Assembly (NCBI GenBank): GCA_963821355.1
Contig: CAWGDO010000003.1
Span: forward strand, 10,981-74,980
Direction of reading: 5' to 3'
DNA from: an uncultured Actinomycetes bacterium
GTDB lineage: Bacteria > Actinomycetota > Thermoleophilia > Solirubrobacterales > Solirubrobacteraceae
DNA length: 64,000 nucleotides
Numbering within the stretch: position 1 is the first letter of the stretch; every line of letters begins with the position of its first letter. Below, piece after piece: positions 27,226 through 62,961 of the stretch. The notes under the pieces were generated by a model that saw only the letters and a list, made by a program, of their open reading frames with translations, did no database searches and was not told the DNA's origin. The translations under genes and the position numbers were made by a program.

Positions 27226-27321
27226 CGTGACTCCTCTCGAGGACAACCCCGAGGTTAGGCCCGACGCCTGGCCGGAACATGCGTGGTTCGCCGCGACATG
27301 AACGTGAGAATCCGCAGCGCC

Positions 27322-31094: not shown

Positions 31095-31960
31095 ATGTCC
31101 ACCTGGGTGATCATCGCCGTGGTCGGCGTGCTGGCCGTTGTCGTGCTGTGCACGTCGGTGCGGATCCTCAAGCAGTACGAGCGCGGCGTGCAGTTCCGCC
31201 TCGGCCGCCTCAAGGACGGACCGCGCGGTCCGGGCCTCATCTTCATCATCCCCCTGGTCGACCACGTGCGGCGCGTGTCGCTGCGGATCGTGACGATGCC
31301 GATCCAGTCGCAGGGGATCATCACTCGCGACAACGTCAGCGTCGACATCGCCGCGGTCGCCTACTACCGCGTCAAGGACCCCGTGCGCTCGGTCGTCGCG
31401 ATCGAGGACGTGGCCGCCGCGATCGACCAGATCGCCCAGACGACGCTGCGCTCCGTCGTCGGCCAGCACACGCTCGACGAGGCGCTCGCCGAGACCGAGA
31501 CGATCAACCAGCACATCCGCGAGATCCTCGACGTCCAGACCGAGGACTGGGGCGTCGAGGTGACGCTGGTCGAGCTCAAGGACATCCAGCTGCCCGACAG
31601 CATGAAGCGCGCCATGGCCAAGCAGGCCGAGGCCGAGCGCGAGAAGCGGGCCAAGATCATCGCCGCCGAGGGCGAGGCGCTGGCCGCCGGCGAGCTGGCC
31701 GACGCGTCGGACATCATGATGGCCCACCCGCTGGCCCTGCAGCTGCGCAACCTGCAGACGCTGATCGAGATCTCGGTCGAGAAGAACTCGACGATCGTCT
31801 TCCCCGCGCCGCTCATGAGCACCATCCAGGAGCTGGGCGCCTTCCTTCGGCACGAGGGCGAGAGCGCGCAGCCGCTCCGCGGGCCCGCCGCCCGCGGGAT
31901 CGGTCGTCAACGGCGCGGGCGCTCCGCTTCCCGGCGTCGCCGCGAGCTGGGAGCCGGTCG
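31095..31960 (+). CDS. SPFH/Band-7 (stomatin/prohibitin) family protein
   Basis: AGGAGGT Shine-Dalgarno sequence, N-terminal TM helix and SPFH domain ([14 protein letters not shown]...). No in-frame stop precedes the next gene's signal peptide, so the 3' end is uncertain. Confidence 0.7.
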
Positions 31961-32595
31961 GATGACCTTGGTCCGCACCTGGCTGCTCGCCTCGGCGGTC
32001 GGCCTGGCCTTCGCCGCCTCTGCGGGCGCACAACGGGGCGTGTTCGAGACCCGCACCTTCGCGGAGCCGGCCAGGCCCGGCCTCGCGGTGACCGGCGCCC
32101 TCAGCGGCTATCGCGTGACGTCCGTCGGACGCGTGGTCGTCCCCACCGGCTGGCGCAGCCTTGCTGCACCGGCCGGCACGCTTCGCTTCCTGACCGGTCG
32201 GCAACCCGAGCTGCCGCTACACCGTGACCTACACCGTCAAGTCGGTGCTGGCGCCGACCCAGGATGCCTCGTCGTACGTCACGGCGGGCCTGCCGGCGCC
32301 CAGCGCGCGGCACCTGCTCGACAGCGGCGTGCACGGCAACCGCGCCTTTCGCGTCGTGCGCCAGCCCGGGATCGGCGGGCGGGTCCGCCTCGACGCGCTG
32401 TGGGCCGGTGTGCTGACCAAGCGCACGGACATCGCGCCGGCTGGGCAGGTGGCGTGGACCGAGATCCGCGTGACGGCGGTGTCCCGCGCGGGCGACGAAT
32501 GCCACTCGGGCACCTGGCGGCAGGCGCTCGGGCCGACCATCGGCGACTCGCTCGCCGTCGCCCGCACGAGCCTCCGTTTCACGAGGTCGGCCTGA
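31961..32595 (+). CDS. Secreted hypothetical protein (signal peptide); apparent +1 frameshift near 32217
   Basis: [24 protein letters not shown] signal peptide. The body continues in the next frame (..RQPELP|[16 protein letters not shown]..). Same reading frame as stomatin upstream. Confidence 0.4.
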
Positions 32596-32985
32596 GCGAC
32601 GCGCGGCGGCTCACGAGCTGCGGAGAACCACGCGGTGCCCTTTCGGTGGGTCCGCGCGATCAATCGGGTCTTACTGGGTGGCGAGGACGCCGGCGGCGAC
32701 GTGACCACTGGGCCTGGCGAGTGGCACCGCCCGGTGGCGGCCACCTACGCGGCCCATCCTTCGCTCACGGTCGCGGCCCTGTCTTCGATCAGGCGGGTCC
32801 GACTCCCGCACTCGCCACTCAGCTGCGACCACGTCGAGGCCTTCGCGCCGCCGTCCGTGGTCCAGGCCCGCCGCCAACGACGGATTGCGGCTCTTCCGCA
32901 GGCTGAAGGCGCGGTCGACCCGGATGGCGGCCCGTCGTGCGATGCCTAGGCTCGGATCATGTACTCCGAGTCCGAGGTCGCCGAC

Positions 32986-33891: not shown

Positions 33892-34371
33892 TCGCCGCCC
33901 CCTCGGTGTCCTCGCCGCCGTCACGACCCGTGCGGGCGGCACGCGGGACGACGATCACCGGGCACGCGGCTGCGCGGCAGATGCTCTCCCGTGCTCCCGG
34001 GCACAATCCGCCGCAGGCGGCCGGTGTGGCTCGAGCCCACGACGATGGCCGCCGCGCCCGCGTCGGCCGCGGCCCGCGCCAGCGCATGCGCCGGGTCACG
34101 ATCGGCGGCCGCGAGCGCGCGGGACCCGGCTCGCCAACCAGCCGCGCCAGCGTCGCCTCTGCTGCGCACGGAGGGCGCGCACGTAGCTTGCGCCGCCGTC
34201 GCCGCTCATGAGCGCGTCGGCCGGGTAGGCGCAGACGAGCAGCAGCCCGCCCGAGCGCCCGGCGATCCGACGCGCGAGAGCGAGCGCATCCAGCGAGCGC
34301 TCGGACTCCTCGACCCCGGCGACGATCGTTCGCATCTCCGTGCAGCCGTGGCGGCGCCCCGTAGTTGCCAC
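33885..34371 (-). pseudogene. USP paralogue remnant, split over three frames
   Basis: MRTIVAGVEESERSLDALALARRIAG.. / ..IVVGSSHTGRLRRIVPGSTGEHL.. / ..CPVIVVPR lie in three frames. Together they form one Usp domain paralogous to the USP at 52022-52888. Confidence 0.5.
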
Positions 34372-34481
34372 GGACGGCGGGGCGCGAGCCCGAATCTAGG
34401 GTCTGCGCATGCTCACTCCGAAGGTTACGTGCCTCACCACACTGCCCACCGCTTACGGGTCGCGGTTGCAGTCCGGGGCCG

Positions 34482-34970
34482 TCAGCGCCGCGAAGCGCTG
34501 AGCTCGGAGGCGAGCTCGGCGACGGCCCGCTCGACGGCGGGGCTCAGGCGCTCGCCGGCCCTGAAGCTCGCGCCCTCGACCGCATAAACGTCGAGCTGAT
34601 CCGGGAGGCGCCCCAGCGCCCGCGCCAGCTCGATGGCGTCCGAGACTCCGAACGCGTGCGTCGACGAGCGCAGGGCGCGCACCGGCAAGGCGTCGGCCCC
34701 GGCGTCGAAACGCCGGATGGTGCCCGGCGCCGCCCCCGACTCGGCGGCGTCGACGACGACGACGTGCTCGGCCCCGGACCACGCGTCCATCAGCGCCGTG
34801 GCATCTCCCTCGACCTCGCGCACGTCGACCCCGGTGGGCGCCAGCGCGCGCACGCGCCGCGCGACGGCGAGGCCGGCGGCGTCGTCGCCGCGCCAGCCAT
34901 TGCCGACGCCGATGAGGATCACTCGCGGTCGATCTCCAGGCGCAGGAAGTGCGTCGCGCACGAGATGCAC
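34482..34970 (-). CDS. Hydrogenase maturation endopeptidase (HycI/HoxW family)
   Basis: [18 protein letters not shown] and HxFG motifs of the hydrogenase C-terminal-processing protease. Start uncertain because it overlaps the large-subunit 3' end. Confidence 0.65.
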
Positions 34971-36208
34971 GGGTCGTAGCTACGCACCGCCTGCTCGCAG
35001 CGCAGGCGCAGCTCGTCGTCGTCGAGATCGACGTGGCGCTGGACGAACCCGTGCAGGCTCTGCTCGATGCGGCCCTGGTTCTGCGAGGTCGGCGGGACGA
35101 TGCGGGCATCGACGATGGTGCCCTCGGCGTCGATCTCGTAGCGATGCCACAGCATCCCGCGCGGCGCCTCGGTCCAGCCGAACCCGACGCCAGCGCGCGG
35201 CACGACCTCGGCGGCCGGCGGATCGGGGGGCTCGTAAGCATCGAGCAGGCGCAGCGCCTCGTCGAGCGCGTAGAGGATCTCCACCGCGCGGACGACGATG
35301 CTGCGGAACGGGTTGCGGCACACGGCCTCCAGCCCTGCCGCGTCGGCCGCCTCGCGCGCACCGGGTGACAGGCGGTCGCGGTTCAGGGCGTAGCGCGCGA
35401 GCGGGCCGACGAGATAGCGCGTGCCGTCGAGCAGGCGCGAGTGCAGCGCCGTGGAGTGCGGCACCTGCTCTTCGACGACGTACTCGTCGTAGTCCGCGGG
35501 CGCGAGGTCCAGGCCCGTGCTGGACACCAGCCGGCCGGACTCGATGGCGTAGACGTCGGGGTCGCGCAGCGCGAGGAAGACGAAGTCCTCCTCGAAGTCC
35601 GGGAACGGCAGCCCGGCCGTCCACGCCACCGCCTCGCGCGCGAACTCGCGCGCGCGCTCGAGCTGCTCAACGACCGGCGCCAGCTCGGCACGCGTCGGCG
35701 CGCGGTAGAAGCCCCCGACGCGGACGTTGATCGGGTGGATCTCGCGCCCCCCGATCACGCGCATGAGCGCGTTGCCGGCTTTCTTGAGCGCCAGCGCCGA
35801 TTCCACGATCCCGGGGTGGTCGCCGGCCATCTCGAAGGCGTGCGAGTAGCCGAGGAAATCCGGCGCGTGCAGCATGAAGACATGCAGCGCGTGGCTCTCG
35901 ACCCACTCGCCGCAGTAGAGCATCCGACGCAGGGCGCCGACCTGCTCGGGGACCTCGACGCCGCAGACGTCCTCCATCGCCGCGATCGAGCTCATCTGGT
36001 AGGCGACCGGGCAGATGCCGCAGATGCGGGCGGTGATGTCGGGGACCTCGTTGAAGCGCCTCCCGCGCAGGAACGCCTCGAAGAAGCGCGGCGGCTCGTA
36101 GATGCGCAGCTTGACGTCCTGCACCTGGCCGTCGCGCACGCGGACCTCCATGGCGCCCTCGCCTTCCACGCGGGCGAGCACCTCGGTGAGGATCTCGCGC
36201 TCAGCCAC
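34919..36208 (-). CDS. hydA: [NiFe]-hydrogenase large subunit, group-3b (sulfhydrogenase alpha)-like
   Basis: N-terminal [10 protein letters not shown] and C-terminal DPCISCATH Ni-Fe ligand motifs. GTG start whose junction with the delta stop reads GTGGCTGA. Confidence 0.85.
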
Positions 36209-36974
36209 GGCGCGCCTCGCTCTCCGCGCGGAACTGCGGCGCGCCCGCGTAGAACGTGCGGTAGAGCCGCACGACGTCACGCTCGGGCAGACCGTGCCTG
36301 GTGAGCCAGCTGCCGAGCGAGCCCGGGTTCGGCTGCTCCATCGGCCCGAAGCACCCGTAGCAGCCTCGGTGGTAGCTGGGGCACAGCGCGCCGCAGCCGG
36401 CGTGCGTGACCGGGCCCATGCACGCCGTCCCGTGGGCGACCATCACGCAGACATTGCCGCGGCGTTTGCATTCCACGCACACGCTGTACGCGCCGATCTG
36501 CGGCTTGCGCTCGTTGAGGTAGGCGCTGATCACCTCGAGCAGCTGGCCCTTGTCGGGCGGGCAGCCGTTGAGCTCGAAGTCGACCGCGACGTGTTCGGAC
36601 GCCGGAGTGGAGTACGCGAGCGTCGAGATGTACTGCGGGCTCGCGTAGACGACCGAGACGAAGTCCTCCACGTCGGCGAAGTTGCGCAGCGCCTGGATGC
36701 CGCCCGCGGTGGCGCACGCGCCGATGCAGACCAGGCGACGGGAGCGCGCGCGGATCTCGCGGATGCGCTCGGCCTCCTCGGAGGTCGTGATCGAGCCCTC
36801 GACGATCGACAGGTCGTACTCGCCCTCGGCGCGCTCGAGCCCGGCCTCGGTGAAGTAGGCGATGTCGATCTCGCCCGCAAGGGCGATGAGCTCGTCCTCG
36901 CAATCCAGCAGCGAAAGCTGGCAGCCGTCGCACGAGGAGAACTTCCAGACTGCGAGGCTGCGTCGCTCGCTCAT
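36201..36974 (-). CDS. hydD: [NiFe]-hydrogenase small subunit (group-3b delta)
   Basis: [23 protein letters not shown] proximal-cluster cysteines and a NuoB-like fold. ATGA overlap with the gamma stop. Confidence 0.8.
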
Positions 36975-37789
36975 AGCTCGGGCACCCGCATGAGCGGCTC
37001 GACGATGTCGCGTCGCAGGACCGGCCCGTCCTTGCACATGAAGAGCGGACCGAGCTGGCAATGCCCACAGTGTCCCGTGGCACAGGTCATGCTGCGCTCG
37101 AGCGAGAGCCAGATGCGGTCGTCGGTCAAGCCCGCGTCCTGCAGCGCAACAGCCGCGAAGCGCATCATCACCTCGGGGCCGCACATCATCGCCACTGCGC
37201 TGCCCGGGTCAAAGACGGCGCGCGGGATGAGCCGCGTGACGACGCCAACGCGCCCGCGCCAGTCGCTGTCGGCGACGTCGACGGTCACGTCGACATCGGC
37301 GTCGAACCGCGCCCGCCAGCCTTCGAGCTCCTCCACGTAGAGCAGCTCGGCCGGGGAGCGCCCGCCGTACAGAATCGACACGTCCCCGAAGCGCTCGCGG
37401 TTGGCAAGAAGCTCATGGATGACCGGGCGCAGCGGTGCGAGGCCGATGCCGCCGGCGACCACGACGACATCACGGCCCTCGGCCTCGCGCACGGGCCACG
37501 CCGTCCCGAACGGGCCGCGAACGCCGAGCACCTCGCCCGGCTTTGCGGCGCAGATCGCCTCGGTCACCGCGCCGACGGCGCGCACCGTGTGCACGACCGC
37601 GCCGTCGCCGCCGATGCTGCTGATCGAGATCGGCGCCTCGCCCACGCCGAACGCGTAGAGCATCGCGAACTGCCCAGGAGAGAACGGCTTGCCGGGCGGC
37701 GCGCCCGCGGGCTCGAGGCGCAGCGTCCAGGTGTCCCCGGTCTCGCGCTGCTTGTCAGCAACACGGTAGGCCGTGGGCAGCTCAGCCAC
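36971..37789 (-). CDS. hydG: Hydrogenase gamma subunit (FAD/NAD(P)-binding, 2Fe-2S, oxidoreductase)
   Basis: FNR-like fold ([14 protein letters not shown]) and a C-terminal [12 protein letters not shown]...C iron-sulfur motif. GTG start overlapping the upstream stop as GTGGCTGA. Confidence 0.8.
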
Positions 37790-38249
37790 CGCCCGCCCTT
37801 CCGTACATGTCGAGGAGCCGCAGCCGGGTGTCCTGGAGACGCTCGACGAAGACGCCCGACAGCAGCTTGAGCATGTCGTAACCCAGGGCCGGGTCGGCCT
37901 CGCACTTGCCGCGCAGGCACGCACCGTCGAGCGAGATGGCGTAGGTCGTCCCCACGGAGCGCGCGTCGAAGGCCGTGCGGTACGGCGGCACGAGCCACGA
38001 CCAGCCGAGTAGCTCGCCGTCGTGCAGCGTCTGCAGCACCACCGCTCCGCGCCCCGGGACCTCGGTCTCCAGCGCGACCGCGCCCTCGCGGATGACGTAG
38101 AACGCGTTGGCCGGCTCGCCCTCGCGCATGATCCGCTCGCCGGGCTGGAAGATGCAGTTGCGTGCACAGCCCGCGACCGTGTCGCGGTGGTCGGGCGCCA
38201 GCGCTTGCAGCGCCGGGACCTCGCTCAGCAGCTCCTCAATCGTCCGCAT
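37782..38249 (-). CDS. Stand-alone cyclic-nucleotide-binding (CAP effector) domain protein embedded in the hydrogenase operon
   Basis: 155 aa. ...[28 protein letters not shown]...[12 protein letters not shown]...RTAFDARSV... is the cNMP-binding beta-roll pattern. No HTH or other output domain. Overlaps hydB 3' and hydG 5'. Confidence 0.75.
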
Positions 38250-39375
38250 GGCCGCCCTCCCGCAGATCGGTGGCGCGGATGGCCGCGGTCTCCTCGGTGA
38301 TGTCGATCGCGACCGGGCACCAGGTGATGCAGCGGCCGCAGCCCACGCACCCCGAGGTGCCGAACTGGTCGATCCAGGTCGACAGCTTGTGGGTCATCCA
38401 CTGCCGGTAGCGCGAGCGCCCGGTTCGGCGCACGCTGCCGCCGTGCACGTAGGAGTGCTCGAGCGTGAAGCACGAGTCCCAGAGGCGTGCGTGCTCGGTC
38501 TCGCCGCCCGCGAGGTCGGTGGTGTCCTCGACCGTGCTGCAGAAGCAGGTCGGGCACACCATCGTGCAGTTGCCGCAGCTCAGGCAGCGGTCGGCGACCT
38601 CGTCCCAGCGCGGGTGGTCCAGGTTGCCCTGCAGCAGGTCGCGGATGTCGGTGACGTCGAGCGTCCGGCCCATCGAGGCCGCGGCCCGCGCGGCCGCCTC
38701 GTCGGGTGCGCGCTCCTCGTCGCCCTCCGCCGCGCGATGCTCAATCGCGGCGAGGACTTCGGCGCCGCGCTCGCTCCCGACCTCCACGACGAAGCGGTGC
38801 CCGTCGTCGTCGAGGAGCTCGGTCAGCGCCAGGTCGAAGCCGCCGGTCACGCGCGGCCCGGTGTCCATCGAGACGCAGAAGCAGGTCCCGCCGGCGCGCC
38901 CGCAGTTGACGGCTACGAAGAACGCGTCGCGCCGACGCGCCTCGTAGTCGGGGTCGGCGTAGCGGTCGCCGATGAAGACGCGGTCCTGGATCGTGACGGC
39001 GTGCAGGTCGCACGAGCGCACGCCGAGGAAGGCGTAGCGCGGCGGCGGCTCGGGAGCCTGCACGTCGAGCCCTCCGTCGAGCCCGCGCCGCGCGCGCCAG
39101 ATGCTGAGCTGGGGGGGGAAGAGGAAGCGCTTGAGCGAGTCGTGGCCGACGGTATGCGCGAAGAGCGCTCCGTCGCCGGTGCGCTGAAGGCGGAAGCTGC
39201 CGCCCTCCTGGACGTCGACCCAGCCGCCGGGAAGCTCGTCGGCGCTGTGCACCTCGTCGTAGACCAGCGACTGCGAGCGGACCGTCGGTCCGATGACCGT
39301 GTAGCCGCGCTGCCAGAGCGCGTCCAGCAGGCCGTCGAGCTCAGCTCGCTCGATGATCGCGGGGGCGGCGTTCAT
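38236..39375 (-). CDS. hydB: Hydrogenase beta subunit (4Fe-4S, HydB/sulfhydrogenase beta-like)
   Basis: Cys clusters [16 protein letters not shown] and [15 protein letters not shown] start at 39375. Confidence 0.8.
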
Positions 39376-39487
39376 CGGAGTGCGTACGCTACACCCGCCG
39401 CGCTGCACGGTGGTCCGTGTTTTTCCGTGCCCCCTCGTGGTCCACCCCCGATGGCGATCGGCGCCGACGGCATTAGCTTGCCGTGCC

Positions 39488-40435
39488 ATGGCCGATTCGA
39501 TCGATCCCCCGCTCTTCGAGCGCATCGTCGTCGGCGTCGACGGCGAACGGGGAGGCCGCGACGCGCTCGCCCTCGCAGCGCTGCTACAGCGCGCGGGCGG
39601 CGGAGAGCTCATCGCCGTCCACGTCCACGCTCCCGCGCACACCGTCGACCTGTCGCACCCTGGGCGCGCGGAGGCGGCGCTCGCCGCGGAGCAGTTCGAG
39701 CTGCTCGAGCGCGAGCTCGCCGCGGCGGGCCTGCAGGCGCACGCCACCGTCATGACCGAGAACTCGCCGGCGCGCGCGCTGCACACGGCCGCCGAGCGCC
39801 ACGCCGCGCAGCTCATCGTCGTCGGGGCCTGCCACCTCACCGGTGCCGAGCGCGTCGTGGCCGGCGACGACGCGACGGGGACCCTGCACGGCGCACCATG
39901 CGCCGTCGCGGTCGCCCCGCGTGGCTTCGCCTGCTCCGGCGGCGAGCTGCGGCTCGTCGGCGTCGGCGTCGACGACTCGCCCGAGGCAAGCGCGGCCCTC
40001 GAGCTCGCGCGCCGCCTCGCCCGGCGAGTCGGCGCCGTCATCCGTGCGACGACCGTCGTCCACCTGGAGCACCCGTTCGGGTCGTTCACTGCGTGGGAGC
40101 CGGCGTGGCCGGTCGACGTGCCCGACGCGCGGGACACGGGCCAGCGGCTCCTCGACCGCCTTCTGGCCGATCCCGAGCACAACGCGACCGGCGAAGTCGC
40201 GGTCGGCACGACGTGGGAGCAGCTCGCCTCGCGCAGTGGCGACCTCGACCTCCTCGTCCTCGGCGCGCGCAACCACAGCCCGCTGCGACGCCTCGTGCTG
40301 GGCAGCACCTCGACGAAGCTCGTGCGCCACATCCCCTGTCCGCTGCTCGTGCTCCCGCGAACCGCCGACGCCCGCCGCGACCAGGCCGCGACCGGCGCGA
40401 TCGCCGCTCGCGAGGCGCACGTCGCGCGACGGTGA
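39488..40435 (+). CDS. Universal stress protein, tandem UspA domains
   Basis: MADSIDPPLFERIVVGVDGERGGRDAL...GARNHSPLRRLVLGSTSTKLVRHIPCPLLVL. Confidence 0.8.
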   Translation: MADSIDPPLFERIVVGVDGERGGRDALALAALLQRAGGGELIAVHVHAPAHTVDLSHPGRAEAALAAEQFELLERELAAAGLQAHATVMTENSPARALHTAAERHAAQLIVVGACHLTGAERVVAGDDATGTLHGAPCAVAVAPRGFACSGGELRLVGVGVDDSPEASAALELARRLARRVGAVIRATTVVHLEHPFGSFTAWEPAWPVDVPDARDTGQRLLDRLLADPEHNATGEVAVGTTWEQLASRSGDLDLLVLGARNHSPLRRLVLGSTSTKLVRHIPCPLLVLPRTADARRDQAATGAIAAREAHVARR

Positions 40436-40650
40436 GCAAGCAGACCGCTGCCGCGCAACCCGACCGGCACGCGCAACCACCGGACGAGGTGCTCGAGCAC
40501 GGTCTTCGTGGCGCTTGCGTTCATGCACGACGTCTTCGGCTCTGCGCGCCTCGACGTCCAGGCGCTCGCCACCGCGGCGGCGGGGCGCTCGGCGTTCTGC
40601 CGGTCACCGCCCTCGAAGAGCGCTGGCGCCGCTGGCGGCTGGCACCACGC

Positions 40651-44568: not shown

Positions 44569-45738
44569 TCACACCCCCGCGCTCGCCCGGGCCGCTGGAC
44601 GGTGCGGTGCCCGGAAGTCGTCGAGCGCGCGCGTGGCCGCCTCGTAGCCCTGGCGGATCAGCCGCGGCCAGTGCGAGCGATCGATGAACAGGTCATAGAA
44701 TCTGACGCCGCGCAGCTCGCGATAGTCGACCGGGTCGACGATCGTCAGGGCGTCGCCCAGACGGCGTTTGGTCCGTTGGGCGAACTCGAGGTGGTAGCCC
44801 TGCTCGAGCTGGCGACTGGCCCGCAGAATGCCGAGCCGGTGGGCCTGCCAGCCGGTGATGTCCTGCGGCTCGAACTGCGCCGGGAGCATGAAGTTCGCGC
44901 CGACGACGTAGTCAAAGTCGCCGTCTTCGAGCACCGGCTCGGCGGGGAAGAGCTCGATGATCCCGCCGTCGACGTAGAGGTGGCCACGCACGGGGACCGC
45001 TTCGATGAAGACCGGCAGGGCGATCGCGATGCGAACGAGTTCGCCGATCGTGAGCTCCGGCGTGCGGCGCGTTCCGAAGTACTCCACGCGGCCGAGGTCC
45101 ATGTTGTAGACGATCGTCGTGATCGGAAAGCGCGTCTCGCCCACGGCCATGCCGCGCGTCCGCTCCTCGAACAGGTGTTGCACGGCCTCGCCCTTCGCCA
45201 GGCCGGTGAACCCGCGCAGCGCAGCGAGCGCGAAGCGGGGCGCATTGCGCCACTGGATGTCGAGGTAGTCCTCGGGACGCCACGACAGCGAGAAGCGCGC
45301 CATCTCGTAGGCGCTGAGCCCCGCCGCCCACATCGCGCCCCAGATGGCACCGCCGGAGCACGCGCTGAGCGCGGCCGGCCGGATCCCCGCCTCTTCGAAG
45401 GCCCGTGCGATGCCGATCAGCGACACGCAGGCGCCACCGCCGCCGCTGGCGATGACCGCCACGCGCTTGCCCTCGAGGGCCGGCACCGGCCGCAAGACGG
45501 GTCGGGGCGGTAGGGGGTTCTCGACGCGCGGGGCGTGGTCGACGTACGGAATCGGCAGCAGCGCATGCCGCGCGCGCAGCAGGAACGCCGGATCCGCCGT
45601 CTCGCGGACCAGGTCGCCGAGCTCGTTGGCTCGCGCGAACGCCCGTTTGAGGCCGTAGAGATCAAGCAGATCCACCATGCCTTCGACGTTAGTCCCGAGC
45701 ACCGCGCCCGCCATCCGCGCGGCGCCGCGTACCGCCAT
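44569..45738 (-). CDS. Patatin-like phospholipase
   Basis: IASGGGGAC glycine-rich oxyanion motif, GxSxG-type CSGGA and a DGG catalytic dyad motif. Start uncertain (45678-45738). Confidence 0.7.
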   Translation of the reverse strand: MAVRGAARMAGAVLGTNVEGMVDLLDLYGLKRAFARANELGDLVRETADPAFLLRARHALLPIPYVDHAPRVENPLPPRPVLRPVPALEGKRVAVIASGGGGACVSLIGIARAFEEAGIRPAALSACSGGAIWGAMWAAGLSAYEMARFSLSWRPEDYLDIQWRNAPRFALAALRGFTGLAKGEAVQHLFEERTRGMAVGETRFPITTIVYNMDLGRVEYFGTRRTPELTIGELVRIAIALPVFIEAVPVRGHLYVDGGIIELFPAEPVLEDGDFDYVVGANFMLPAQFEPQDITGWQAHRLGILRASRQLEQGYHLEFAQRTKRRLGDALTIVDPVDYRELRGVRFYDLFIDRSHWPRLIRQGYEAATRALDDFRAPHRPAARASAGV

Positions 45739-45868
45739 GTGGTGAATCCCGGAGCGCGAGCGTGGCGGCTTTCTACCGAGGCGATGCGCACGGCCGCCCG
45801 GATGCGGACCGCCCCGCAGACGCCTAGCGTCAAACCCGGAACGTGTGCCCATCGAAGGGAGGTATGAC

Positions 45869-46306
45869 ATGCCCGGAACCCTCATTCGCTGGGATCCCTT
45901 CGCCGAGCTGCCGGAGTTCCGCGGCTGGTTCGACCGGCTGCTGGACGACTTCGGGACTGCCCGTGCGCGCGAGTGGACGCCGGCCGTGGACGTGGTCCGC
46001 GACAACGGCAACCTCATCCTGCGCGCGGACGTGCCGGGGATCGAGCCCGAGGAGATCAGGATCGAGATCCGCGAGGGCTATCTGACGTTATCCGGCGAGC
46101 ACGAGGAGACCACGGAGGAAACGGAGAAGCAGTACGTGCGCCGCGAACGGCGCTATGGCAGCTTCTCCCGGAGCGTCCCGCTGCCCGAGGGCGTCGAGGC
46201 CAAGAAGATCAAGGCCAAGACGCACGACGGCGTGCTCGAGGTGACGATCCCGCTACCGAAGCAGGTGGCGGTGGAGCCGATCACGATCACGCCGACCGTC
46301 GAGTAG
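45869..46306 (+). CDS. Hsp20/alpha-crystallin small heat-shock protein (HspX/Acr-like)
   Basis: GAAGGGAGG Shine-Dalgarno sequence 6 nt upstream. ACD domain with DV(R/K)..L.L.A.LPGV...I.I and an IxI-like C-terminus. Confidence 0.85.
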   Translation: MPGTLIRWDPFAELPEFRGWFDRLLDDFGTARAREWTPAVDVVRDNGNLILRADVPGIEPEEIRIEIREGYLTLSGEHEETTEETEKQYVRRERRYGSFSRSVPLPEGVEAKKIKAKTHDGVLEVTIPLPKQVAVEPITITPTVE

Positions 46307-46325
46307 CCCGCTTCCAGGTCAGGCC

Positions 46326-46359
46326 GATGGGCGGCGTCCATTGCCGGTCGCCGCCCATC
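46326..46359. terminator. GC-rich hairpin: 11-bp perfect inverted repeat GATGGGCGGCG-N12-CGCCGCCCATC between hsp20 and acg
   Basis: Read directly from sequence, 20 nt after the hsp20 stop. No U-tract follows, which is common in high-GC genomes. Could be a terminator, an attenuator or a protein-binding site. Confidence 0.3.
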
Positions 46360-46451
46360 CGGCTGCAGGGGCCGCCCACCGTACTTTCTGCGGTCGCTGG
46401 ACGCGGCCCTCTGCCGATGATCGCCTGACCCGCATCGGTCACGGTCGTCGC

Positions 46452-47444
46452 ATGAGCAAGATCACCGCGCGCGAGGCGCGACACCTGGCGCCGGAGGCGC
46501 TCGACACGATTCTGCGCGCCGCTGTCCTCGCGCCCTCCACGCACAACACGCAGCCCTGGACATTCGCCCTCGAGCCCGGCGTCGTCGACCTGCGCGCGGA
46601 CCGCACGCGCGCGCTGCCCGTCAACGATCCGGAGGACCGCGAGCTGACCATCAGCTGCGGTGCCGCGCTGTTCAACCTGCGCGTGGCGGCGTGCCACGCC
46701 GGCGCCGCGCCTGCGATCGAGCTGCTGCCAGATCCGGGCGACCCGGACCTGCTGGCCACCGTCGTGCTGCACGGCGGCGGCCGGCCTCCCGCGGACGTCG
46801 AGCGCCTGAACGCGGCGATCGCACGGCGCCGCACCCACCGCGACGGCTTCGCCGACCTCGACCTACCGCCGTGCCTGGGCAACGAGCTGCGAGGCATCGG
46901 CCATGCCGAGGGCGCCTGGCTGGAGCTCGTGGACGTGGACACGCTCGACGACCTGGCCGATCTCATCGCCGAGGCCGACCGCATGCAATGGGCCAACCGC
47001 CATTGGCGCCGCGAGCTCGCCGCGTGGATGCATCCGCGTCGCGCCAACGACGGCCTCGCCATGCCCGACCTCGTCGCGCCGCTGGCGCGCGCGACGGTCG
47101 CGACGCTGGACGTCGGTATGCCGACCGCCGCCCGCGACCGCGATCGCGCGCGGGAGGCGCCGGCGATCGTCGTCCTCGACACCCACGGCGACCGCCCGCG
47201 CGACTGGCTCATCACCGGCATGGCGCTCGAACACGCCCTTCTGCACGCGGCGTCACAAGGCGTCCAGGCCTCCTATCTCAACCAACCGATCCAGGTCGCC
47301 GAGCTGCGGATGCGAGTGGCCTCGCTGCTCGAACGTCCGTGCTTCCCGCAGGTGGTCATGCAACTCGGGCATCCGGCACATCCGGCCGGCCCGGCCCGGC
47401 GCCGCCCGCTGGCCGACGTGATCGAGTCCGCCGAGGGCCCCTGA
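46452..47444 (+). CDS. acg: Acg-family nitroreductase-like protein (tandem nitroreductase folds)
   Basis: LAPSTHNTQPW (NfnB-like FMN-site motif) and a 330-aa two-lobed architecture like Mtb Acg/Rv2032. Confidence 0.8.
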   Translation: MSKITAREARHLAPEALDTILRAAVLAPSTHNTQPWTFALEPGVVDLRADRTRALPVNDPEDRELTISCGAALFNLRVAACHAGAAPAIELLPDPGDPDLLATVVLHGGGRPPADVERLNAAIARRRTHRDGFADLDLPPCLGNELRGIGHAEGAWLELVDVDTLDDLADLIAEADRMQWANRHWRRELAAWMHPRRANDGLAMPDLVAPLARATVATLDVGMPTAARDRDRAREAPAIVVLDTHGDRPRDWLITGMALEHALLHAASQGVQASYLNQPIQVAELRMRVASLLERPCFPQVVMQLGHPAHPAGPARRRPLADVIESAEGP

Positions 47445-49891
47445 TGGCCTCCCGCAACGGGAGCCGCCCCGACAGGCGCGCCGCGGCCGGCGCCGCCGAG
47501 CTTGGGCCCGACGAGCTGCGCAGGCGCTGCGACCCGGCGACGCTCGGCTTCACCACTACCTCAGAGCTGCCCTCGCTGCCGGGCCAGATCAACCAGGACC
47601 GGCCGGCTGCCGCGATCGACTTCGCCCTGGACATGCAGGGCCGCGGGTACAACCTCCTCGTCACCGGGGTCCCCGGGACCGGCCGCCGGACGACCGTCCT
47701 CGCGCGCCTAGCCGCGCACGGCGCCAAGCGCCCGACGCCGCCAGACTGGGTCTACCTCTTCAACTTCGCCGAGCCCGCACGCCCGCTCGCCGTGGCGCTG
47801 CCCACTGGTCGCGCCCGCGAGCTCGCCGCCGCGATGGAGGCGTTCGTGGAGGCCGTGGGCAAGGAGATCCCGCGCGCCTTCGAGAGCGAGAGCTACCGCG
47901 AGCGCCATGACGCGGCCGTCGCCGACCTTGAGCGCCGCCGGCAGGAGGGCCTGGATCGCGTGCGCGGCCACGCCGCCCGGCGGGGGCTCGCGCTCGAGCT
48001 CACGCCCTCCGGGGTGGTGATGATGGCGCTCGTGGACGGCCACCCGGTCGGTCCGGAGGACTTTGCGCGTCTCCCGCAGGAGACCAGGGACGAGCTCAGC
48101 GCTGCCCAGCGCGAGATCGAGAGCGAGATGACCGACCTCATGGGCGTCGTCCGCGAACTCGATCGCGAGGGGCGCGAGCGCATCCGCAAGCTCGATCGAG
48201 AGGTCGCGCTGTTCGCCGTGGGGCACCTGATCGACGACCTCAAGGCGGCCTTCCAGGAGCCGGACGCGATCGGCCGCTGGCTCGAGCAGGTACGCGAGGA
48301 CGTCATCGCGAACCTCGCCCGGTTCGTCGGCGAACCGGAGAACGACGCGGTCGCCCTCCGCCAGATCGCGGGCATGACGGGCGGCCAGGCGGGCGCCCGA
48401 TTTCCACGGCGCTATGGCGTCAATGCGTTCGTCGCGCACGACGGCGCCGACGGGGCGCCGATCGTGGTGGAGACGAATCCCAGCTATCAGAGCCTGTTCG
48501 GGCGCATCGAGTTCGAGAGCATGCTCGGCGCGGTCGCCACCGACCACGGCCACCTGCGGGCGGGCGCGGTCCACCGTGCCAACGGCGGCTACCTCGTCCT
48601 GCGCACGCTCGAGGTCATCACGCGGCCCCTGCTCTGGAGCAAGCTCAAGGAGGTCCTGCGAACCGGGAGCGTGCGGCTGGAGAATCCCGGCGAGCAGCTC
48701 ATGCTGTTCCCGACCGCGTCGCTGACTCCGGAGGCCGTCGACGTCGACCTCAAGGTCGTGCTCGTGGGCTCGCCGGAGATCCACCGGCTGCTGGACGCCC
48801 TCGACGAGGACGTCCGCGATCTCTTCCGCGTGCGCGCCGAGTTCGACATCGAAGTGCCGTGGAGCGACGAGCAGGTCCGCGAGTACGCCGGCTTCGTCGC
48901 CGACTACGTCCGCGAGCGCGGCCTGCGCCACTTCGATCCGGGCGCCGTGGCCCGCGTGGTCGAGCACGGCGCCCGCGTCGCCGGCGATCAGCGCAAGCTC
49001 ACCACGCGTTTCGCGGGCATCGGCGAGCTCGTCGCGGAGGCCAGCCACTGGGCGGGCGAGGCGGGCCGCGAGACGGTGACCGGCGCCGACGTGCAGGACG
49101 CGATCGAGCGCCGGATCCACCGCTCCGACCTGCTCGAGAACCGCCTCGACGAGCTCATCGCCGACGGGACGCTGATGATCGCCGTCGACGGCGAGCGAGT
49201 CGGCCAGGTCAACGGCCTGTCGGTCGTGGCGCTCGGGGACTACGACTTCGGCCGGCCGATCCGGATCACCGCCACGACCGCCGGCGGTCGCGGCGAGGTG
49301 GTCAGTATCGACCGGGAGACGGAGCTCAGCGGCGCGATCCACGACAAGGGCTTCCTCGCCCTGCGCGGCTACCTCGAGCAGCGTTACGGCGAACGCGCCC
49401 CGCTGACGCTCGTCGCCAGCGTGACGTTCGAGCAGTCCTACGCCGGCGTCGAGGGCGATTCCGCCGCCAGCGCCGAGCTCTACGCGTTGCTCTCGAGCCT
49501 CGCCCGCGTCCCGCTGCGCCAGGGCATCGCGGTCACGGGGTCGGTCAACCAGCACGGCGAGGTCCAGGCGATCGGCGGCGTAAACGAGAAGATCGAAGGC
49601 TTCTACCGCGTCTGCAGCCGCGCAGGGCTGACCGGCGAGCAGGGCGTGCTCATCCCCCGCGCCAACGTGCGCCACCTGATGCTCAGCGACGAGATCGTCG
49701 AGGCGGTCAGGGCCGGGCGCTTCCACGTCTGGGCGGTCGCCACCATCGACGAAGGTCTGGAGTTGCTGACCGGCCTGCCGGCCGGCAGCCGCGGCCCGGA
49801 CGGCGCCTTCCCGGAAGGCACCGTGCACTGCCGCGTGGAGGAACGGCTGTTCTCGCTGGGCGACGCGGCTGGCACTCTCGAGGAGGTCTAG
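47444..49891 (+). CDS. Lon-like ATP-dependent protease (AAA+ domain + S16 Lon proteolytic domain, COG1067/LonB-like)
   Basis: Walker A LLVTGVPGTGRRT, an AAA+ core, and a C-terminal S16 domain (..GDSAASAELYALLSSLARVPLRQGIAVTGSVNQHGEVQAIGGVNEKIEGF..). ATG overlaps the acg stop (TGATG). Confidence 0.8.
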   Translation: MASRNGSRPDRRAAAGAAELGPDELRRRCDPATLGFTTTSELPSLPGQINQDRPAAAIDFALDMQGRGYNLLVTGVPGTGRRTTVLARLAAHGAKRPTPPDWVYLFNFAEPARPLAVALPTGRARELAAAMEAFVEAVGKEIPRAFESESYRERHDAAVADLERRRQEGLDRVRGHAARRGLALELTPSGVVMMALVDGHPVGPEDFARLPQETRDELSAAQREIESEMTDLMGVVRELDREGRERIRKLDREVALFAVGHLIDDLKAAFQEPDAIGRWLEQVREDVIANLARFVGEPENDAVALRQIAGMTGGQAGARFPRRYGVNAFVAHDGADGAPIVVETNPSYQSLFGRIEFESMLGAVATDHGHLRAGAVHRANGGYLVLRTLEVITRPLLWSKLKEVLRTGSVRLENPGEQLMLFPTASLTPEAVDVDLKVVLVGSPEIHRLLDALDEDVRDLFRVRAEFDIEVPWSDEQVREYAGFVADYVRERGLRHFDPGAVARVVEHGARVAGDQRKLTTRFAGIGELVAEASHWAGEAGRETVTGADVQDAIERRIHRSDLLENRLDELIADGTLMIAVDGERVGQVNGLSVVALGDYDFGRPIRITATTAGGRGEVVSIDRETELSGAIHDKGFLALRGYLEQRYGERAPLTLVASVTFEQSYAGVEGDSAASAELYALLSSLARVPLRQGIAVTGSVNQHGEVQAIGGVNEKIEGFYRVCSRAGLTGEQGVLIPRANVRHLMLSDEIVEAVRAGRFHVWAVATIDEGLELLTGLPAGSRGPDGAFPEGTVHCRVEERLFSLGDAAGTLEEV

Positions 49892-49896
49892 GCGCG

Positions 49897-50622
49897 GTGT
49901 CGCCTGCGCAGGCCGCGATCCGGGTCGACCGGCTGCTCGTCCGGCGCGGCGGCAACGAGGTTCTCCACCGCGTCTCGCTCGCAGTGCCCGCCGGGGAGAT
50001 CACCGGACTGCTGGGCCCGAGCGGGTGCGGCAAGACGACGCTCATGCGCGCGATCGTGGGCGTCCAGATCATCGATTCGGGCACCGTCGAGGTGCTCGGC
50101 CTGCCGGCGGGGGCGCCGGCGCTGCGGCGCCGGGTCGGCTACATGACGCAGTCGCCCTCGGTCTACCGTGATCTGACGACCCGCGAGAACCTACGCTACT
50201 TCGCTCGCGTGCTCGCTGCGCCCGCCGGCCGAGTCGACGAGGTGATCGCCACCGTCGACCTTGGCGACCGCGCCGACCGTGTTGTGAGCTCGCTCTCGGG
50301 AGGCGAGCAGGCCCGCGCCTCCTTGGCGACCGCTCTGCTGGCCGAGCCGCAGCTGCTCGTCCTCGACGAGCCGACGGTCGGCCTCGACCCGCTCCTGCGG
50401 CGGGAACTGTGGAGCACGTTCAGAGCGCTGGCGTCCCGGGGCGTCACGCTGCTCGTCTCCAGTCACGTGATGGACGAGGCCGAGCACTGCGACGCGCTCG
50501 TCCTCATGCGCGACGGCGACGTGGTCGCCAACGAGGCACCGGACGACCTGCGGCGGCGGACCCGCTGCGACGACCTCGAGGAGGCGTTCGTCGCGCTGAT
50601 CGAGCATCGGGTCCCGGCATGA
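49897..50622 (+). CDS. ABC transporter ATP-binding protein
   Basis: Walker A GPSGCGKTT, LSGGEQ signature and Walker B LLVLDEPT. AGGAGG Shine-Dalgarno sequence 10 nt upstream of the GTG start. Confidence 0.85.
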   Translation: MSPAQAAIRVDRLLVRRGGNEVLHRVSLAVPAGEITGLLGPSGCGKTTLMRAIVGVQIIDSGTVEVLGLPAGAPALRRRVGYMTQSPSVYRDLTTRENLRYFARVLAAPAGRVDEVIATVDLGDRADRVVSSLSGGEQARASLATALLAEPQLLVLDEPTVGLDPLLRRELWSTFRALASRGVTLLVSSHVMDEAEHCDALVLMRDGDVVANEAPDDLRRRTRCDDLEEAFVALIEHRVPA

Positions 50623-51356
50623 GTCCCGGGGTCGCCGCAGCCACCGCCGCCCGCGTGCTCACCCAACTGTGGCGCGACCCACGAACAATTGCGCTGCTGC
50701 TGGTCGTCCCGTGCGCGCTGGTCACGCTCCTGAAGTACGTCTTCGCCTCGCGCCCATTGGCCTTTCAGGCCATCGGCGGCCCGCTGCTCGGCCTGTTCCC
50801 CTTCATCACGATGTTCCTCGTCACCTCGATCACCATGCTGCGCGAGCGCACCACCGGTACGCTCGAGCGGCTGATGAGCATGCCGTTGGGCAAGCTCGAC
50901 CTGCTCCTGGGATACGGGGTCGCCTTCGCGGCCGTTGCGATCGTCCAGGCCGTCACGGTGAGCCTCCTGGCCTTCGGCGCGTTGGGCCTCGACACGGCCG
51001 GGTCCGTGGGCGCCGTCATCGCGCTCGCGGTCGCCAACGCGGTTCTGGGGATGGCGCTCGGCCTCTTCGTGTCGGCGTTCGCGACCACCGAGTTCCAGGC
51101 CGTCCAGTTCATGCCCGCCGTCGTGTTCCCGCAGCTGCTGCTGTGCGGATTGTTCATCTCGCGCACGGAGATGGCGGCGGGCCTGCGCTGGGCGTCGGAC
51201 GCCCTCCCCCTCACCTACGCGTACGACGCGCTCGACCGCGTCACGAGCCAGGGAGCGCTCGGATCGCGCGGCGCCATCGACGTGGTCGTCGTCTTCGGGG
51301 CCACCGTCCTCGCACTCGCGCTCGGTGCGGCGACGCTGCGTAGGCGCACGCCCTGA
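50619..51356 (+). CDS. ABC-2 type transporter permease
   Basis: Six TM helices. ATGA overlap with the ATPase gene. Confidence 0.8.
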   Translation: MSPGVAAATAARVLTQLWRDPRTIALLLVVPCALVTLLKYVFASRPLAFQAIGGPLLGLFPFITMFLVTSITMLRERTTGTLERLMSMPLGKLDLLLGYGVAFAAVAIVQAVTVSLLAFGALGLDTAGSVGAVIALAVANAVLGMALGLFVSAFATTEFQAVQFMPAVVFPQLLLCGLFISRTEMAAGLRWASDALPLTYAYDALDRVTSQGALGSRGAIDVVVVFGATVLALALGAATLRRRTP

Positions 51357-51361
51357 CTAAC

Positions 51362-52009
51362 CTAGTCGTCTTCGGTCCAGGTCAGCTCCGACCGCACGGT
51401 GACGACGCCCGGCACCTTGGCGACGAGCTTCGGCAGGATGTCGGCCTCGGTGCGCCGGCGGACGCTGCCCGCGAGCGTCGTCTCGCCGTTACGGACCTGC
51501 ACGTCGATCGTGCCGTTCTCGAGCCCGAGCGCCTCGTGCAGGGAGACCTGCTCGCTGATCTCGCGGGCGATCTCCTCGTCGGTGCGCGCGAACGCGCGCA
51601 CGAGGTCCGCGCGGGTGACGATCCCGACGAGCCGCCCCTGATGGACCACCGGAAGGCGGTTGACACCGTGCTCGAGCATGATCTGCGCGGCTGAGGGGAT
51701 CGTCCAGAACGGCTCGATCGTGATCGCGGGCGATGTCATCGCCTCGCCGGCGGTCCGGGCGGCGGCCTTGGCTGCCGCCTCGGGATCGCGACGCGCGACC
51801 AACCGCGCCAGCGGGCCCGGCTCCTCGGGCTCCGGGCGCTCCTTGGCCAGGACGTCGGCCTCGGAGACCACTCCGACGACCTCGCCGTCGTCGCCGACGA
51901 CCGGCAGGCCGGAGATGCCACGCGCGACGAGCGCGCGCGCGACGTCCTTCAGCGATGCCCCAGGCGCGACGGTGGTGACGTCGCGCGTCATGACCTCTTG
52001 CACTCTCAT
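51362..52009 (-). CDS. CBS-pair + BON-domain protein (hypoxic-response-protein-like)
   Basis: Two CBS motifs (MTRDVTTV..., ...GRLVGIVTRADL) followed by a BON-like C-terminus. Relates to Mtb Hrp1/Rv2626c. Confidence 0.75.
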   Translation of the reverse strand: MRVQEVMTRDVTTVAPGASLKDVARALVARGISGLPVVGDDGEVVGVVSEADVLAKERPEPEEPGPLARLVARRDPEAAAKAAARTAGEAMTSPAITIEPFWTIPSAAQIMLEHGVNRLPVVHQGRLVGIVTRADLVRAFARTDEEIAREISEQVSLHEALGLENGTIDVQVRNGETTLAGSVRRRTEADILPKLVAKVPGVVTVRSELTWTEDD

Positions 52010-52021
52010 GCGCCGACCTTG

Positions 52022-52888
52022 TCAATCATTCGGCGACATGCCATCCGGCGTCACCACTGCCCCGGGTCGGGAGTTCCCACGGATCTTCGCGCCGGCTCCG
52101 CGCGCAACGATTATCACCGGGCACGCCGCTGTCCGGATCAGGCGACCCGACGTGGCGCCCGCCAGCACCGCGTGCAGCGGTCCGTAGCCGCGCGAGCCGG
52201 TGACGAGCAGATCGAGCGAGGACGAGGCGCGCGCGAGCTCGTCGACCGGCTCGCCGCTGCGCACCAGCGGCCGAGCCTGCACGGCGGGGTCGAGCCGCGC
52301 GACGACGCGCGACAGGTCATCGGCGGCGCCGCTTTCGCCGGGCGGCTCGACGACGCGAATGACGTCCAGCCGGGCGCCGAGCCGGCGGGCGACGTCCTCG
52401 GCCGTCGCGAGCGCTCGGTGCGCCTCCGCCGAGCCGTCGTAGGCGCAGCCCACCGCCGCGAAGGGCACGTCCCCGCGCTCGCCGTATCCGCGTGGCGCGA
52501 TCGCAACCGGACACGGCGCGCTGTGAAGCAGGTGCTCGCCCGTGCTCCCGGGCAGGATCCGGCGCAGCGCGCAGGCGTGGCTCGAGCCGACCACGATAAG
52601 CGCCGCGCGCTCCTCGGTCGCGACCTCCTGGAGCCCCCAAGCCGGATGAGCGGCCGCGACGGCGCGGGTCACGGTTCCAGGCGAGCCGGAAAGACGGGCG
52701 AGGGTCGCCTCGGCGTCTGCTCGCAATGCCCGCGGGTAGGCCGCGCCACCCTCGCCTGCGTAGACTGGATCGCCGGGGTAGACGCACACGAGCAGCAGCC
52801 TGGCCGAGGGCTCGGCGAGGCCCCGTGCGAGCGCAAGCGCGTCGACGGAACGCTCGGAATCCTCGACGCCTACGACGACCGTTTCCAT
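52022..52888 (-). CDS. Universal stress protein, tandem UspA domains
   Basis: METVVVGVEDSERSVDALALARGL...GSRGYGPLHAVLAGATSGRLIRTAACPVIIV. Confidence 0.8.
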   Translation of the reverse strand: METVVVGVEDSERSVDALALARGLAEPSARLLLVCVYPGDPVYAGEGGAAYPRALRADAEATLARLSGSPGTVTRAVAAAHPAWGLQEVATEERAALIVVGSSHACALRRILPGSTGEHLLHSAPCPVAIAPRGYGERGDVPFAAVGCAYDGSAEAHRALATAEDVARRLGARLDVIRVVEPPGESGAADDLSRVVARLDPAVQARPLVRSGEPVDELARASSSLDLLVTGSRGYGPLHAVLAGATSGRLIRTAACPVIIVARGAGAKIRGNSRPGAVVTPDGMSPND

Positions 52889-62861: not shown

Positions 62862-62961
62862 GATGCGACCGTAGTCCGCGCGGCAGCACCTGCCATCCGC
62901 ATTCAACACGGAGCGCGCAGCCGGAGAAGCACGGACGATCGCGACGGCACATCGTGGTGCA

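Follow-up and report, generated by a model that had tools for sequence, protein, structure and literature searches.

A LonC-type protease gene beside hsp20 and acg in a locus that resembles an actinobacterial dormancy island

In Mycobacterium tuberculosis, the DosR regulon contains hspX, acg, genes for universal stress proteins (USPs), pfkB, ctpF, Rv0571c, tgs1 and hrp1 (PMC3110807, PMC3177182). Two of these genes, hspX (Rv2031c), which encodes an alpha-crystallin small heat-shock protein (sHSP), and acg (Rv2032), are divergent neighbours. We analysed a 64-kb stretch of DNA (the window, to which all unlabelled coordinates refer) from a Solirubrobacteraceae-like actinobacterium, in which an alpha-crystallin sHSP gene, hsp20, also lies beside an Acg-family gene. 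Here, however, the two genes are co-directional, and the block continues with lonC, for a Lon-like protease of the LonC type, and with the two genes of an ABC-2 exporter, neither of which belongs to the M. tuberculosis locus (Table 1). To our knowledge, M. tuberculosis has no Lon.

A possible functional link between hsp20 and lonC, joining an ATP-independent holdase to a Lon-family protease for protein quality control, has a parallel in Escherichia coli, in which the sHSPs IbpA and IbpB and their bound clients are Lon substrates. The E. coli protease is an ATP-dependent LonA that is encoded elsewhere, whereas here the gene for a LonC of the ATP-independent type follows the sHSP gene by one or two genes. 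The LonC of Meiothermus taiwanensis (MtaLonC; PDB 4FW9/4FWD and 8K8V-8K94; MEROPS S16 subfamily C) is structurally well characterised. It lacks ATPase activity, and its ATP-free proteolysis is limited to unfolded substrates (PMC3391209); it also has a dual chaperone/protease function and can switch to a chaperone form (PMC13069640). Both reports leave the cellular role of LonC open and give no genomic or physiological context for MtaLonC. The locus described here provides a concrete and testable physiological context for LonC, and context evidence for the idea of ‘fuel-free proteolysis under stress’ of the LonC authors (PMC3391209, PMC13069640). It points to hypoxia, starvation and heat as relevant conditions, and to Hsp20 and Acg as candidate partners of LonC.

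On balance, we favour a reading in which the block comprises two co-regulated, partly nested units, hsp20 with its downstream hairpin followed by acg–lonC–abcAB, in a lineage-specific arrangement within a dormancy/stress island. Each part comes from a known family (LonC, Acg, HSP20 or ABC-2). What is new is a lonC gene that is embedded in a dormancy-type island and shares its promoter type, the clade-specific linkage of lonC to hsp20 and acg, and a DosR-like gene set whose promoter signature is not that of DosR. We found no description of an island-embedded LonC, of the hsp20/acg linkage or of the non-DosR promoter signature in the searchable literature. The acg–lonC–ABC order is specific to this lineage, a variant within a known class of stress loci and not a general module.

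Gene identities and junctions of the block

The window has a G+C content of 69–77%, and reading frames with a G+C content at third codon positions (GC3) of 0.87–0.95 give a clean gene map. All five genes of the block are supported as coding, with GC3 values of 0.89–0.94 in their frames. A first-pass annotation of this DNA had named them as genes for hsp20, acg, a Lon-like protease, an ABC ATPase and an ABC-2 permease; profile searches bear out these identities, and every sequence feature that it described is present, with the coordinates and junctions unchanged.

The hsp20 gene has GGGAGG 7 nt ahead of its ATG, and its orthologues are also 145 aa in length (74–79% identity) and occupy the same position in related loci. 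A spacer of 146 nt separates it from acg. The TGA of acg (47442–47444) and the ATG of lonC (47444–47446) have one base in common (TGATG), and the alignment of LonC with its orthologues begins at residue 1. The gene for the ABC ATPase, which starts 5 nt after lonC, has its Shine–Dalgarno sequence within the final lonC codons, and the ATPase and permease genes overlap by ATGA (50619–50622). At the far end of the block, the permease gene and a convergent CBS-BON gene finish 5 nt apart (51354–51364), with their stops inside a small GACUA/UAGUC stem. We rejected a terminator at this convergent end (51356/51362): the stem has only 6 bp, and the region shows no significant structure (z = +0.4) and no obvious terminator between the two convergent units.

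Table 1. Coordinates of the block, its signals and the promoter-like motif sites of the window (motif sites allow one mismatch in CGGATG)
Feature	Position	Strand	Description
hsp20	45869–46306	+	145 aa; alpha-crystallin small heat-shock protein; Pfam HSP20 PF00011, E = 1.7e-24
acg	46452–47444	+	330 aa; Acg-family FMN-binding, nitroreductase-fold protein
lonC	47444–49891	+	815 aa; soluble LonC-type Lon-like protease/chaperone
Shine–Dalgarno sequence of ABC ATPase gene	49881–49886	+	AGGAGG, within final lonC codons, 10 nt ahead of start at 49897
ABC transporter ATPase	49897–50622	+	241 aa; GTG start; PF00005, E = 3e-32
ABC-2 type permease	50619–51356	+	245 aa; PF01061, E = 1.3e-29; ~6–7 hydrophobic segments
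GC-rich hairpin	46326–46359	+	perfect 11-bp stem, 12-nt loop, no U-tract
Patatin promoter-like site	45686–45717	-	CGGATG-N20-TAACGT, ATG 7 nt past -10; divergent patatin-like gene; motif site
hsp20 promoter-like site	45772–45830	+	CTACCG (45772–45777), N21, CGGATG (45799–45804), N20, TAGCGT (45825–45830); motif site at 45799–45830
acg promoter-like element	46414–46445	+	CCGATG-N20-CACGGT, ends 6 nt before acg ATG
Motif site	352–383	+	
Motif site	3280–3311	-	
Motif site	4329–4360	+	
Motif site	25199–25230	-	
Motif site	27252–27283	-	
Motif site	31016–31047	+	
Motif site	32921–32952	+	
Motif site	34371–34402	+	
Motif site	39448–39479	+	
Motif site	62868–62899	-	

The lonC product had been described as an AAA+/S16 Lon-like protein distinct from classical LonA, and the second part of that description stands. 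A Pfam scan matched the domains AAA_32 (E = 9e-45), LonB_AAA-LID (E = 1e-23), LonC_helical (E = 2e-11) and, as the S16 protease domain, Lon_C (PF05362, E = 7e-9), and gave no match to the LonA N-domain. The LonC-specific helical insertion (PF20437) scored 43.9 bits against a cutoff of 24, and the NCBIfam equivalog models for LonA and LonB scored far under their cutoffs. No transmembrane segment or LonB-type membrane anchor was found in the protein, with a maximum 19-residue Kyte–Doolittle hydropathy of 1.26. The MtaLonC structure 4FWD matches over most of the protein (E = 2e-93), and the two share an AAA-like domain with the LonC helical insertion, a LID and an S16 protease domain. The sequences EGDSAAS and NEKIEGF align with the catalytic motifs of MtaLonC, GDSA with its Ser and (N/A)K(I/V)EGF with its Lys, and the corresponding residues, Ser673 (GDSA) and Lys716 (EKIEGF), do not vary among the aligned homologues (120 of 120). 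By its sequence, then, the protein is of the LonC type, and the Ser–Lys dyad, which the first-pass annotation had left to be checked, is intact.

The label AAA+ was an overstatement for a LonC-type protein with degenerate Walker motifs. Walker A reads GVPGTGRRT (K to R and S/T to R), with R in place of K in close relatives as well, and the Walker B position reads YLVLRT, without Asp-Glu. Among the 120 homologues, the family-wide Walker A pattern is GxxGxG[K/R]R[TS], and the Walker B Asp position is occupied by P, R or D. Because both motifs are degenerate, the window LonC is probably ATP-independent and not an ATPase. Degenerate Walker A and B motifs are shared with MtaLonC, but that protein keeps the Walker A lysine (GPPSLGKHE) and the Walker B aspartate (GYLILDA), both of which are arginine in the window LonC (GYLVLRT for Walker B); therefore, even nucleotide binding may have been lost. 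The two proteins also differ in setting, as Meiothermus is thermophilic and the host of the window is presumably a mesophilic soil actinobacterium. We considered and rejected a reading of LonC as an anti-phage defence Lon-like protein of the BREX BrxL type: PADLOC gave no match for LonC, Acg, hsp20 or the permease, and only generic ATPase matches for the ABC ATPase.

The acg product matches the NCBIfam model NF047509, ‘Acg family FMN-binding oxidoreductase’ (281 bits against a cutoff of 199; profile positions 2–319 of 319), where FMN is flavin mononucleotide, and aligns with M. smegmatis Acg (MsAcg, PDB 2YMV) over residues 18–321, nearly its full length (E = 7e-23). These matches place it in the Acg family (Rv2032/Rv3131/Rv3127 type), with a predicted duplicated nitroreductase fold as in MsAcg. 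In proteins of this family, FMN sits beneath a lid. Mycobacterial Acg is a flavin sequesterer without NAD(P)H activity (PMC11841060, PMC13494985).

Both exporter subunits match the generic Pfam models ABC_tran and ABC2_membrane. The pair resembles the DrrAB-type exporters of daunorubicin resistance in that an ATPase and an ABC-2 permease are encoded by two overlapping genes, and Drr models are the top NCBIfam matches of both subunits: DrrA TIGR01188 for the ATPase (172 bits against a cutoff of 312) and DrrB-type TIGR00025 for the permease (117 bits against 147), which scored 38 bits with TIGR01247 (cutoff 223). Unlike DrrAB, however, the pair falls under every curated cutoff, so that no substrate can be assigned, and it is present in only two orthologous loci.

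Island context, promoter-like motif and hairpin

The window as a whole resembles a dormancy/stress island with DosR-regulon-like gene content. Pfam matches include at least five USPs, pfkB, a P-type cation ATPase, TrkA, a fusion of phosphoribosyltransferase (PRTase) and hydrolase, WS/DGAT and a flavodoxin-like protein, together with GAPDH, a TreT-type trehalose synthase, PHO4, Band-7, LPG-synthase-TM, PAP2 and patatin. Downstream of the block lie genes for CBS-BON, USP, CBS and DUF2267 proteins and then a V/A-type ATPase operon. The USPs, pfkB, the ctpF-like P-type ATPase, the Rv0571c-like PRTase, the tgs1-like WS/DGAT protein and a CBS-pair protein all have counterparts in the DosR regulon, part of the membership of which is established knowledge. 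This content suits a stress or non-replicating state as the setting of the block, in line with the module for non-replicating cells that the first-pass annotation had proposed.

In place of DosR boxes, a shared promoter-like motif, CGGATG-N20-TANNNT, recurs in the window. It occurs at eight exact sites against 0.2 expected, all with a spacing of exactly 20 nt, and at 12 sites against 0.67 expected if one mismatch is allowed in CGGATG; in 541 kb of unrelated loci there are about three independent matches. Every site lies 6–75 nt upstream of a co-oriented start codon, and at four of the eight exact sites CTACSG stands exactly 21 nt further upstream. At five sites, the ATG follows the -10-like hexamer by 6–8 nt, as is typical of leaderless actinobacterial mRNAs; the mRNA of the patatin-like gene divergent from hsp20 is probably leaderless, judging from its site. 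An alignment of the patatin/hsp20 divergent region across five loci revealed invariant blocks, among them those of the hsp20 site, and both the hsp20 and the patatin sites are kept in four orthologous loci (L081–L084). At the motif site 39448–39479, a putative leaderless ATG (39488) opens a plus-strand open reading frame (ORF; 39488–40435) with high GC3 and a USP-like N terminus (...FERIVVGVD). The same DNA is covered by a 778-aa minus-strand ORF (38236–40572) with Pfam matches only in its C-terminal Fe-S part, which is probably over-extended, with a further USP gene antisense to it.

We know of no DosR box or sigma consensus that this motif resembles. Two other interpretations of CGGATG were ruled out: as half of a palindrome, because its flanks are not palindromic, and as an ECF-type -35 element, because any GTT/CGT element lies too far away. 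For the DosR box itself (TTSGGGACTWWAGTCCCSAA), the core GGGACN4GTCCC with up to two mismatches gave 49 matches in the window against 74 expected, and no DosR-box-like match lies upstream of hsp20 or acg. A DosR half-site near 45683 was discarded, as it overlaps the ribosome-binding region of the patatin-like gene. No response regulator, GAF/histidine-kinase or DosR/DosS protein was found among the roughly 50 window ORFs scanned; a regulator may be encoded outside this set. A DosR-like gene set in a distant actinobacterial class, with no DosR boxes and an apparently different promoter signal, bears on the evolution of dormancy programmes in soil Actinobacteria.

Within the window, no exact copy of the motif precedes acg, lonC or the ABC genes. 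Ahead of acg there is a related element (Table 1), and no Shine–Dalgarno sequence precedes the acg ATG in the window or in L081–L084; because the ATG lies 6 nt past the element and lacks a Shine–Dalgarno sequence, the acg mRNA is probably leaderless. The region upstream of acg, taken to a point just within the gene, aligns without gaps over 82 columns between the window, where acg follows hsp20, and L081–L084, where it follows lonC, with 88% column identity. All five regions have CTGCCGAT(G/C)-N20-[C/G]ANNNT-N6-ATG in common; the -10-like hexamer has an invariant A (position 2) and T (position 6). The lonC-to-acg spacer of the relatives holds no exact motif, only the degenerate CCGATG-N20-[C/G]ANNNT. 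This upstream stretch, conserved over at least 80 nt, has the look of a leaderless promoter that is built like the motif but weaker. It is conserved in both gene orders, and thus acg moved along with its own 5' region. In three further Solirubrobacterales loci in which lonC does not stand behind hsp20, L001 (leaderless), L006 and L085 (CGGATG-N20-CACGGT-6 nt-ATG), lonC is preceded by its own copy of the motif, so LonC belongs to the same promoter class there.

The strong 11-bp hairpin reported between hsp20 and acg is confirmed, with perfectly paired arms GATGGGCGGCG (46326–46336) and CGCCGCCCATC (46349–46359). A 64-nt piece that contains it folds with an energy of -37.7 kcal/mol (z = -3.3), which 2 of 200 shuffles also reach, and the whole 146-nt spacer gives z = -3.85 (0 of 200 shuffles as good). 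The hairpin is followed by CGGCUGCAGGGG rather than by the U-tract of an intrinsic (Rho-independent) terminator, and scans for intrinsic terminators and sigma-70 consensus promoters returned no site in 45300–52200. Since every Rfam family stayed under its gathering score throughout the window, the structured spacer corresponds to no known RNA. A homologous hairpin, GGGCGGCG...CGCCGCCC, is present in L081–L084, and the structure is thus kept in five of five loci (z from -3.3 to -5.1). In L082–L084, the next gene, for a PRTase, begins 3–5 nt past the hsp20 stop and the hairpin falls in its first codons; transcription must therefore read through, and the hairpin is not a full terminator there. 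In the window, it probably terminates transcription in part or stabilises the 3' end. In these three relatives the PRTase AUG lies within the closing stem of a conserved Y-shaped structure (L082 9221–9289, L084 2358–2426, L083 8637–8705; z about -4.7 to -5.0), which might restrict its translation or serve as a switch that depends on temperature or structure.

With two co-regulated units, an island-type promoter, CTACSG-N21-CGGATG-N20-TANNNT, would drive hsp20, and the hairpin after the hsp20 stop would end or stabilise most transcripts while letting some transcription through. The second unit would begin at the weaker, similarly built promoter that ends 6 nt ahead of the acg ATG and would yield a leaderless acg mRNA, on which translation of lonC would be coupled to that of acg (TGATG); the ABC ATPase would use its own AGGAGG, and the permease would be coupled to the ATPase (ATGA). 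The transcript boundaries and the co-induction of the units are inferred; what the sequences show is the gene identities, the junctions, the motif enrichment and the conservation of the hairpin, of the acg 5' region and of the adjacency. Hsp20 would serve as an ATP-free holdase for unfolding proteins, and LonC, like its Meiothermus counterpart, would degrade or chaperone unfolded proteins without ATP, which would suit energy-starved, non-growing cells. Acg may bind or sequester FMN as mycobacterial Acg does, and the ABC-2 exporter could be an optional accessory. Overall, the block may provide ATP-sparing proteostasis and cofactor management in non-growing cells.

The first-pass annotation had instead proposed one transcription unit. 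A single operon, hsp20-acg-lonC-abcA-abc2, transcribed from the hsp20 promoter, with the hairpin as an attenuator or stability element and no promoter at acg, is possible but distinctly less probable. It would account for the five co-directional genes, the tight junctions after acg (-1, 5 and -4 nt), the absence of the exact motif ahead of acg, lonC and the ABC genes, the lack of a U-tract and the clear read-through of the hairpin in L082–L084. It makes the conserved region upstream of acg hard to explain, however: at least 80 nt, promoter-like and without a Shine–Dalgarno sequence, this region accompanies acg whichever gene precedes it, which argues for an acg-specific start. The strongly structured spacer between hsp20 and acg, with its hairpin conserved in all five loci, also makes a single transcription unit doubtful.

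Gene order among relatives

In a large protein database, LonC orthologues form a tier of 71–76% identity, after which identity drops to 60% or less. The corresponding loci come from uncultured organisms, as metagenome-assembled genomes or metagenome contigs, and form a small and phylogenetically narrow sample. The window reads patatin(-) / hsp20–acg–lonC–ABC–ABC2, and one contig (P0008) reads patatin(-) / hsp20–nitroreductase-fold gene–lonC–ABC–ABC2, in which the second gene, with a weak Pfam match only, is presumably acg; an acg/lonC overlap is called there too. The order is hsp20–lonC–acg–CBS–DUF2267–V-type ATPase in L081, hsp20–PRTase–lonC–acg–CBS–DUF2267 in L084 and hsp20–PRTase–lonC–acg, up to the contig ends, in L082 and L083. 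A further contig (P0003) has hsp20–PRTase–lonC and a cut gene, and L085 has DUF1918(-) / lonC and a non-Acg gene. Thus, acg adjoins lonC in six of the seven readable orthologous loci, upstream in two and downstream in four, and hsp20, LonC and Acg are kept together in the same proportion (6/7). A PRTase gene stands between hsp20 and lonC in four loci, and the ABC pair accompanies lonC only in the two with acg upstream.

For comparison with other taxa, we surveyed two sets of 80 loci each: the best-matching LonC loci of GTDB species representatives (36–56% identity, from both bacteria and archaea, with up to 6 kb of flank) and metagenomic Acg loci (27–64% identity). None of the 80 LonC loci of other taxa has an Acg gene nearby; hsp20 occurs in only two of them, adjacent in neither, and 13 have ABC ATPases at most 6 kb from LonC. 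No LonC or hsp20 gene was found near Acg in any of the 80 Acg loci. Second-tier Solirubrobacterales lonC genes (53–56% identity) lie among pfkB/CpsB, 2-oxoacid dehydrogenase, P-type ATPase, USP and MscS genes. The pairing of Acg-family and COG1067 Lon-like genes, for which a search of public genomes had been proposed, recurs within the clade and is absent from the 80 LonC and 80 Acg loci of other taxa. The block is not a fixed module, given the switch of acg from one side of lonC to the other and the restriction of the ABC pair to two loci. The Acg–LonC pairing is thus real, but it has been rearranged and does not extend beyond a narrow clade.

One explanation for adjacency that survives rearrangement is a specific functional pairing, in which Acg would be a flavin- or redox-dependent regulator, an adaptor or a preferred substrate of LonC; for example, LonC might degrade apo-Acg or Acg and thereby free stored FMN on exit from dormancy. 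Adjacency in six of seven readable loci despite the side switch and the insertion and loss of genes around it, the TGATG coupling in the window and the overlap called in P0008 are in its favour. We nevertheless regard it as unlikely, since neither survey of other taxa yielded a single instance, L085 lacks the pairing, no Acg–Lon fusion appears among the 120 LonC homologues listed, and the orthologous sample is small and narrow; moreover, neither gene is out of the ordinary in a stress island, so that co-regulation alone explains their proximity. Less likely again is a bolder version, in which a dedicated Acg–LonC pair (with the flavin or redox state of Acg gating LonC, or LonC turning over Acg to free FMN at entry into or exit from dormancy) would belong to a DosR-independent regulon under a previously undescribed CTACSG-N21-CGGATG-N20-TANNNT promoter. 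Least probable of all is that the genes are incidental, independently regulated neighbours in a recombination-prone region, or that the protease and ABC-2 genes form a peptide-processing/export or immunity module with no relation to hsp20 and acg: the fluid gene order among close relatives, with an ABC pair that comes and goes, and the ABC ATPases near LonC in 13 of the 80 distant loci fit such readings, but the overlapping or near-abutting starts and stops argue for co-transcription of acg–lonC–abcAB, an island-type promoter precedes lonC in three other loci, LonC matches no defence-system model, and the absence of the ABC pair from most orthologous loci implies that LonC does not depend on it.

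Several points weigh against the two co-regulated, partly nested units that we favour. A close orthologue, that of L085, has neither hsp20 nor Acg beside LonC, and the orthologous loci are few and related, such that common descent could account for a large part of the conserved adjacency. Both hexamers of the acg element (CCGATG and CACGGT) depart from the motif, and CGGATG-N20-TANNNT might be the general promoter type of the lineage and not stress-specific. The hairpin lacks a U-tract, so that its role is putative, and the ATP independence of LonC is read from its motifs only.

In one of the orthologous loci (L083, 9426–11875), the LonC orthologue is split into ORFs of 191 and 624 aa, with the break at about residue 159/160; the split is a frameshift that marks either a pseudogene or an assembly error.

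Further features of the window

The V/A-type ATPase operon (53994–~61900, plus strand) encodes subunits I, c, E, A, B and D and directly follows the CBS-DUF2267 genes, with the same order in L081 (14589–22178). A V/A-type ATPase is unusual in an actinobacterial stress island.

Upstream of the block, a [NiFe]-hydrogenase cluster on the minus strand (34482–38249) comprises genes for the HycI protease, the large subunit, the small subunit and an NAD-binding/Fe-S subunit, with a small cyclic-nucleotide (cNMP)-binding protein encoded at its upstream end (37782–38249).

Two long plus-strand ORFs of the window may not each represent a single gene. The Band-7/SPFH ORF (31086–32906) has a GC3 above 0.9 for its first ~1080 nt and of 0.55–0.70 thereafter, and a second plus-strand frame, 32194–32595, has high GC3; the drop could reflect a frameshift, an assembly error or two genes. 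A 1679-aa frame (4525–9564) combines an MMPL-type transporter region (residues 106–326) with an AMP-binding enzyme (residues 1118–1679), and may represent a fusion or a pair of genes that share the frame with no stop between them; a plus-frame ORF at 7235–7762 competes with it.

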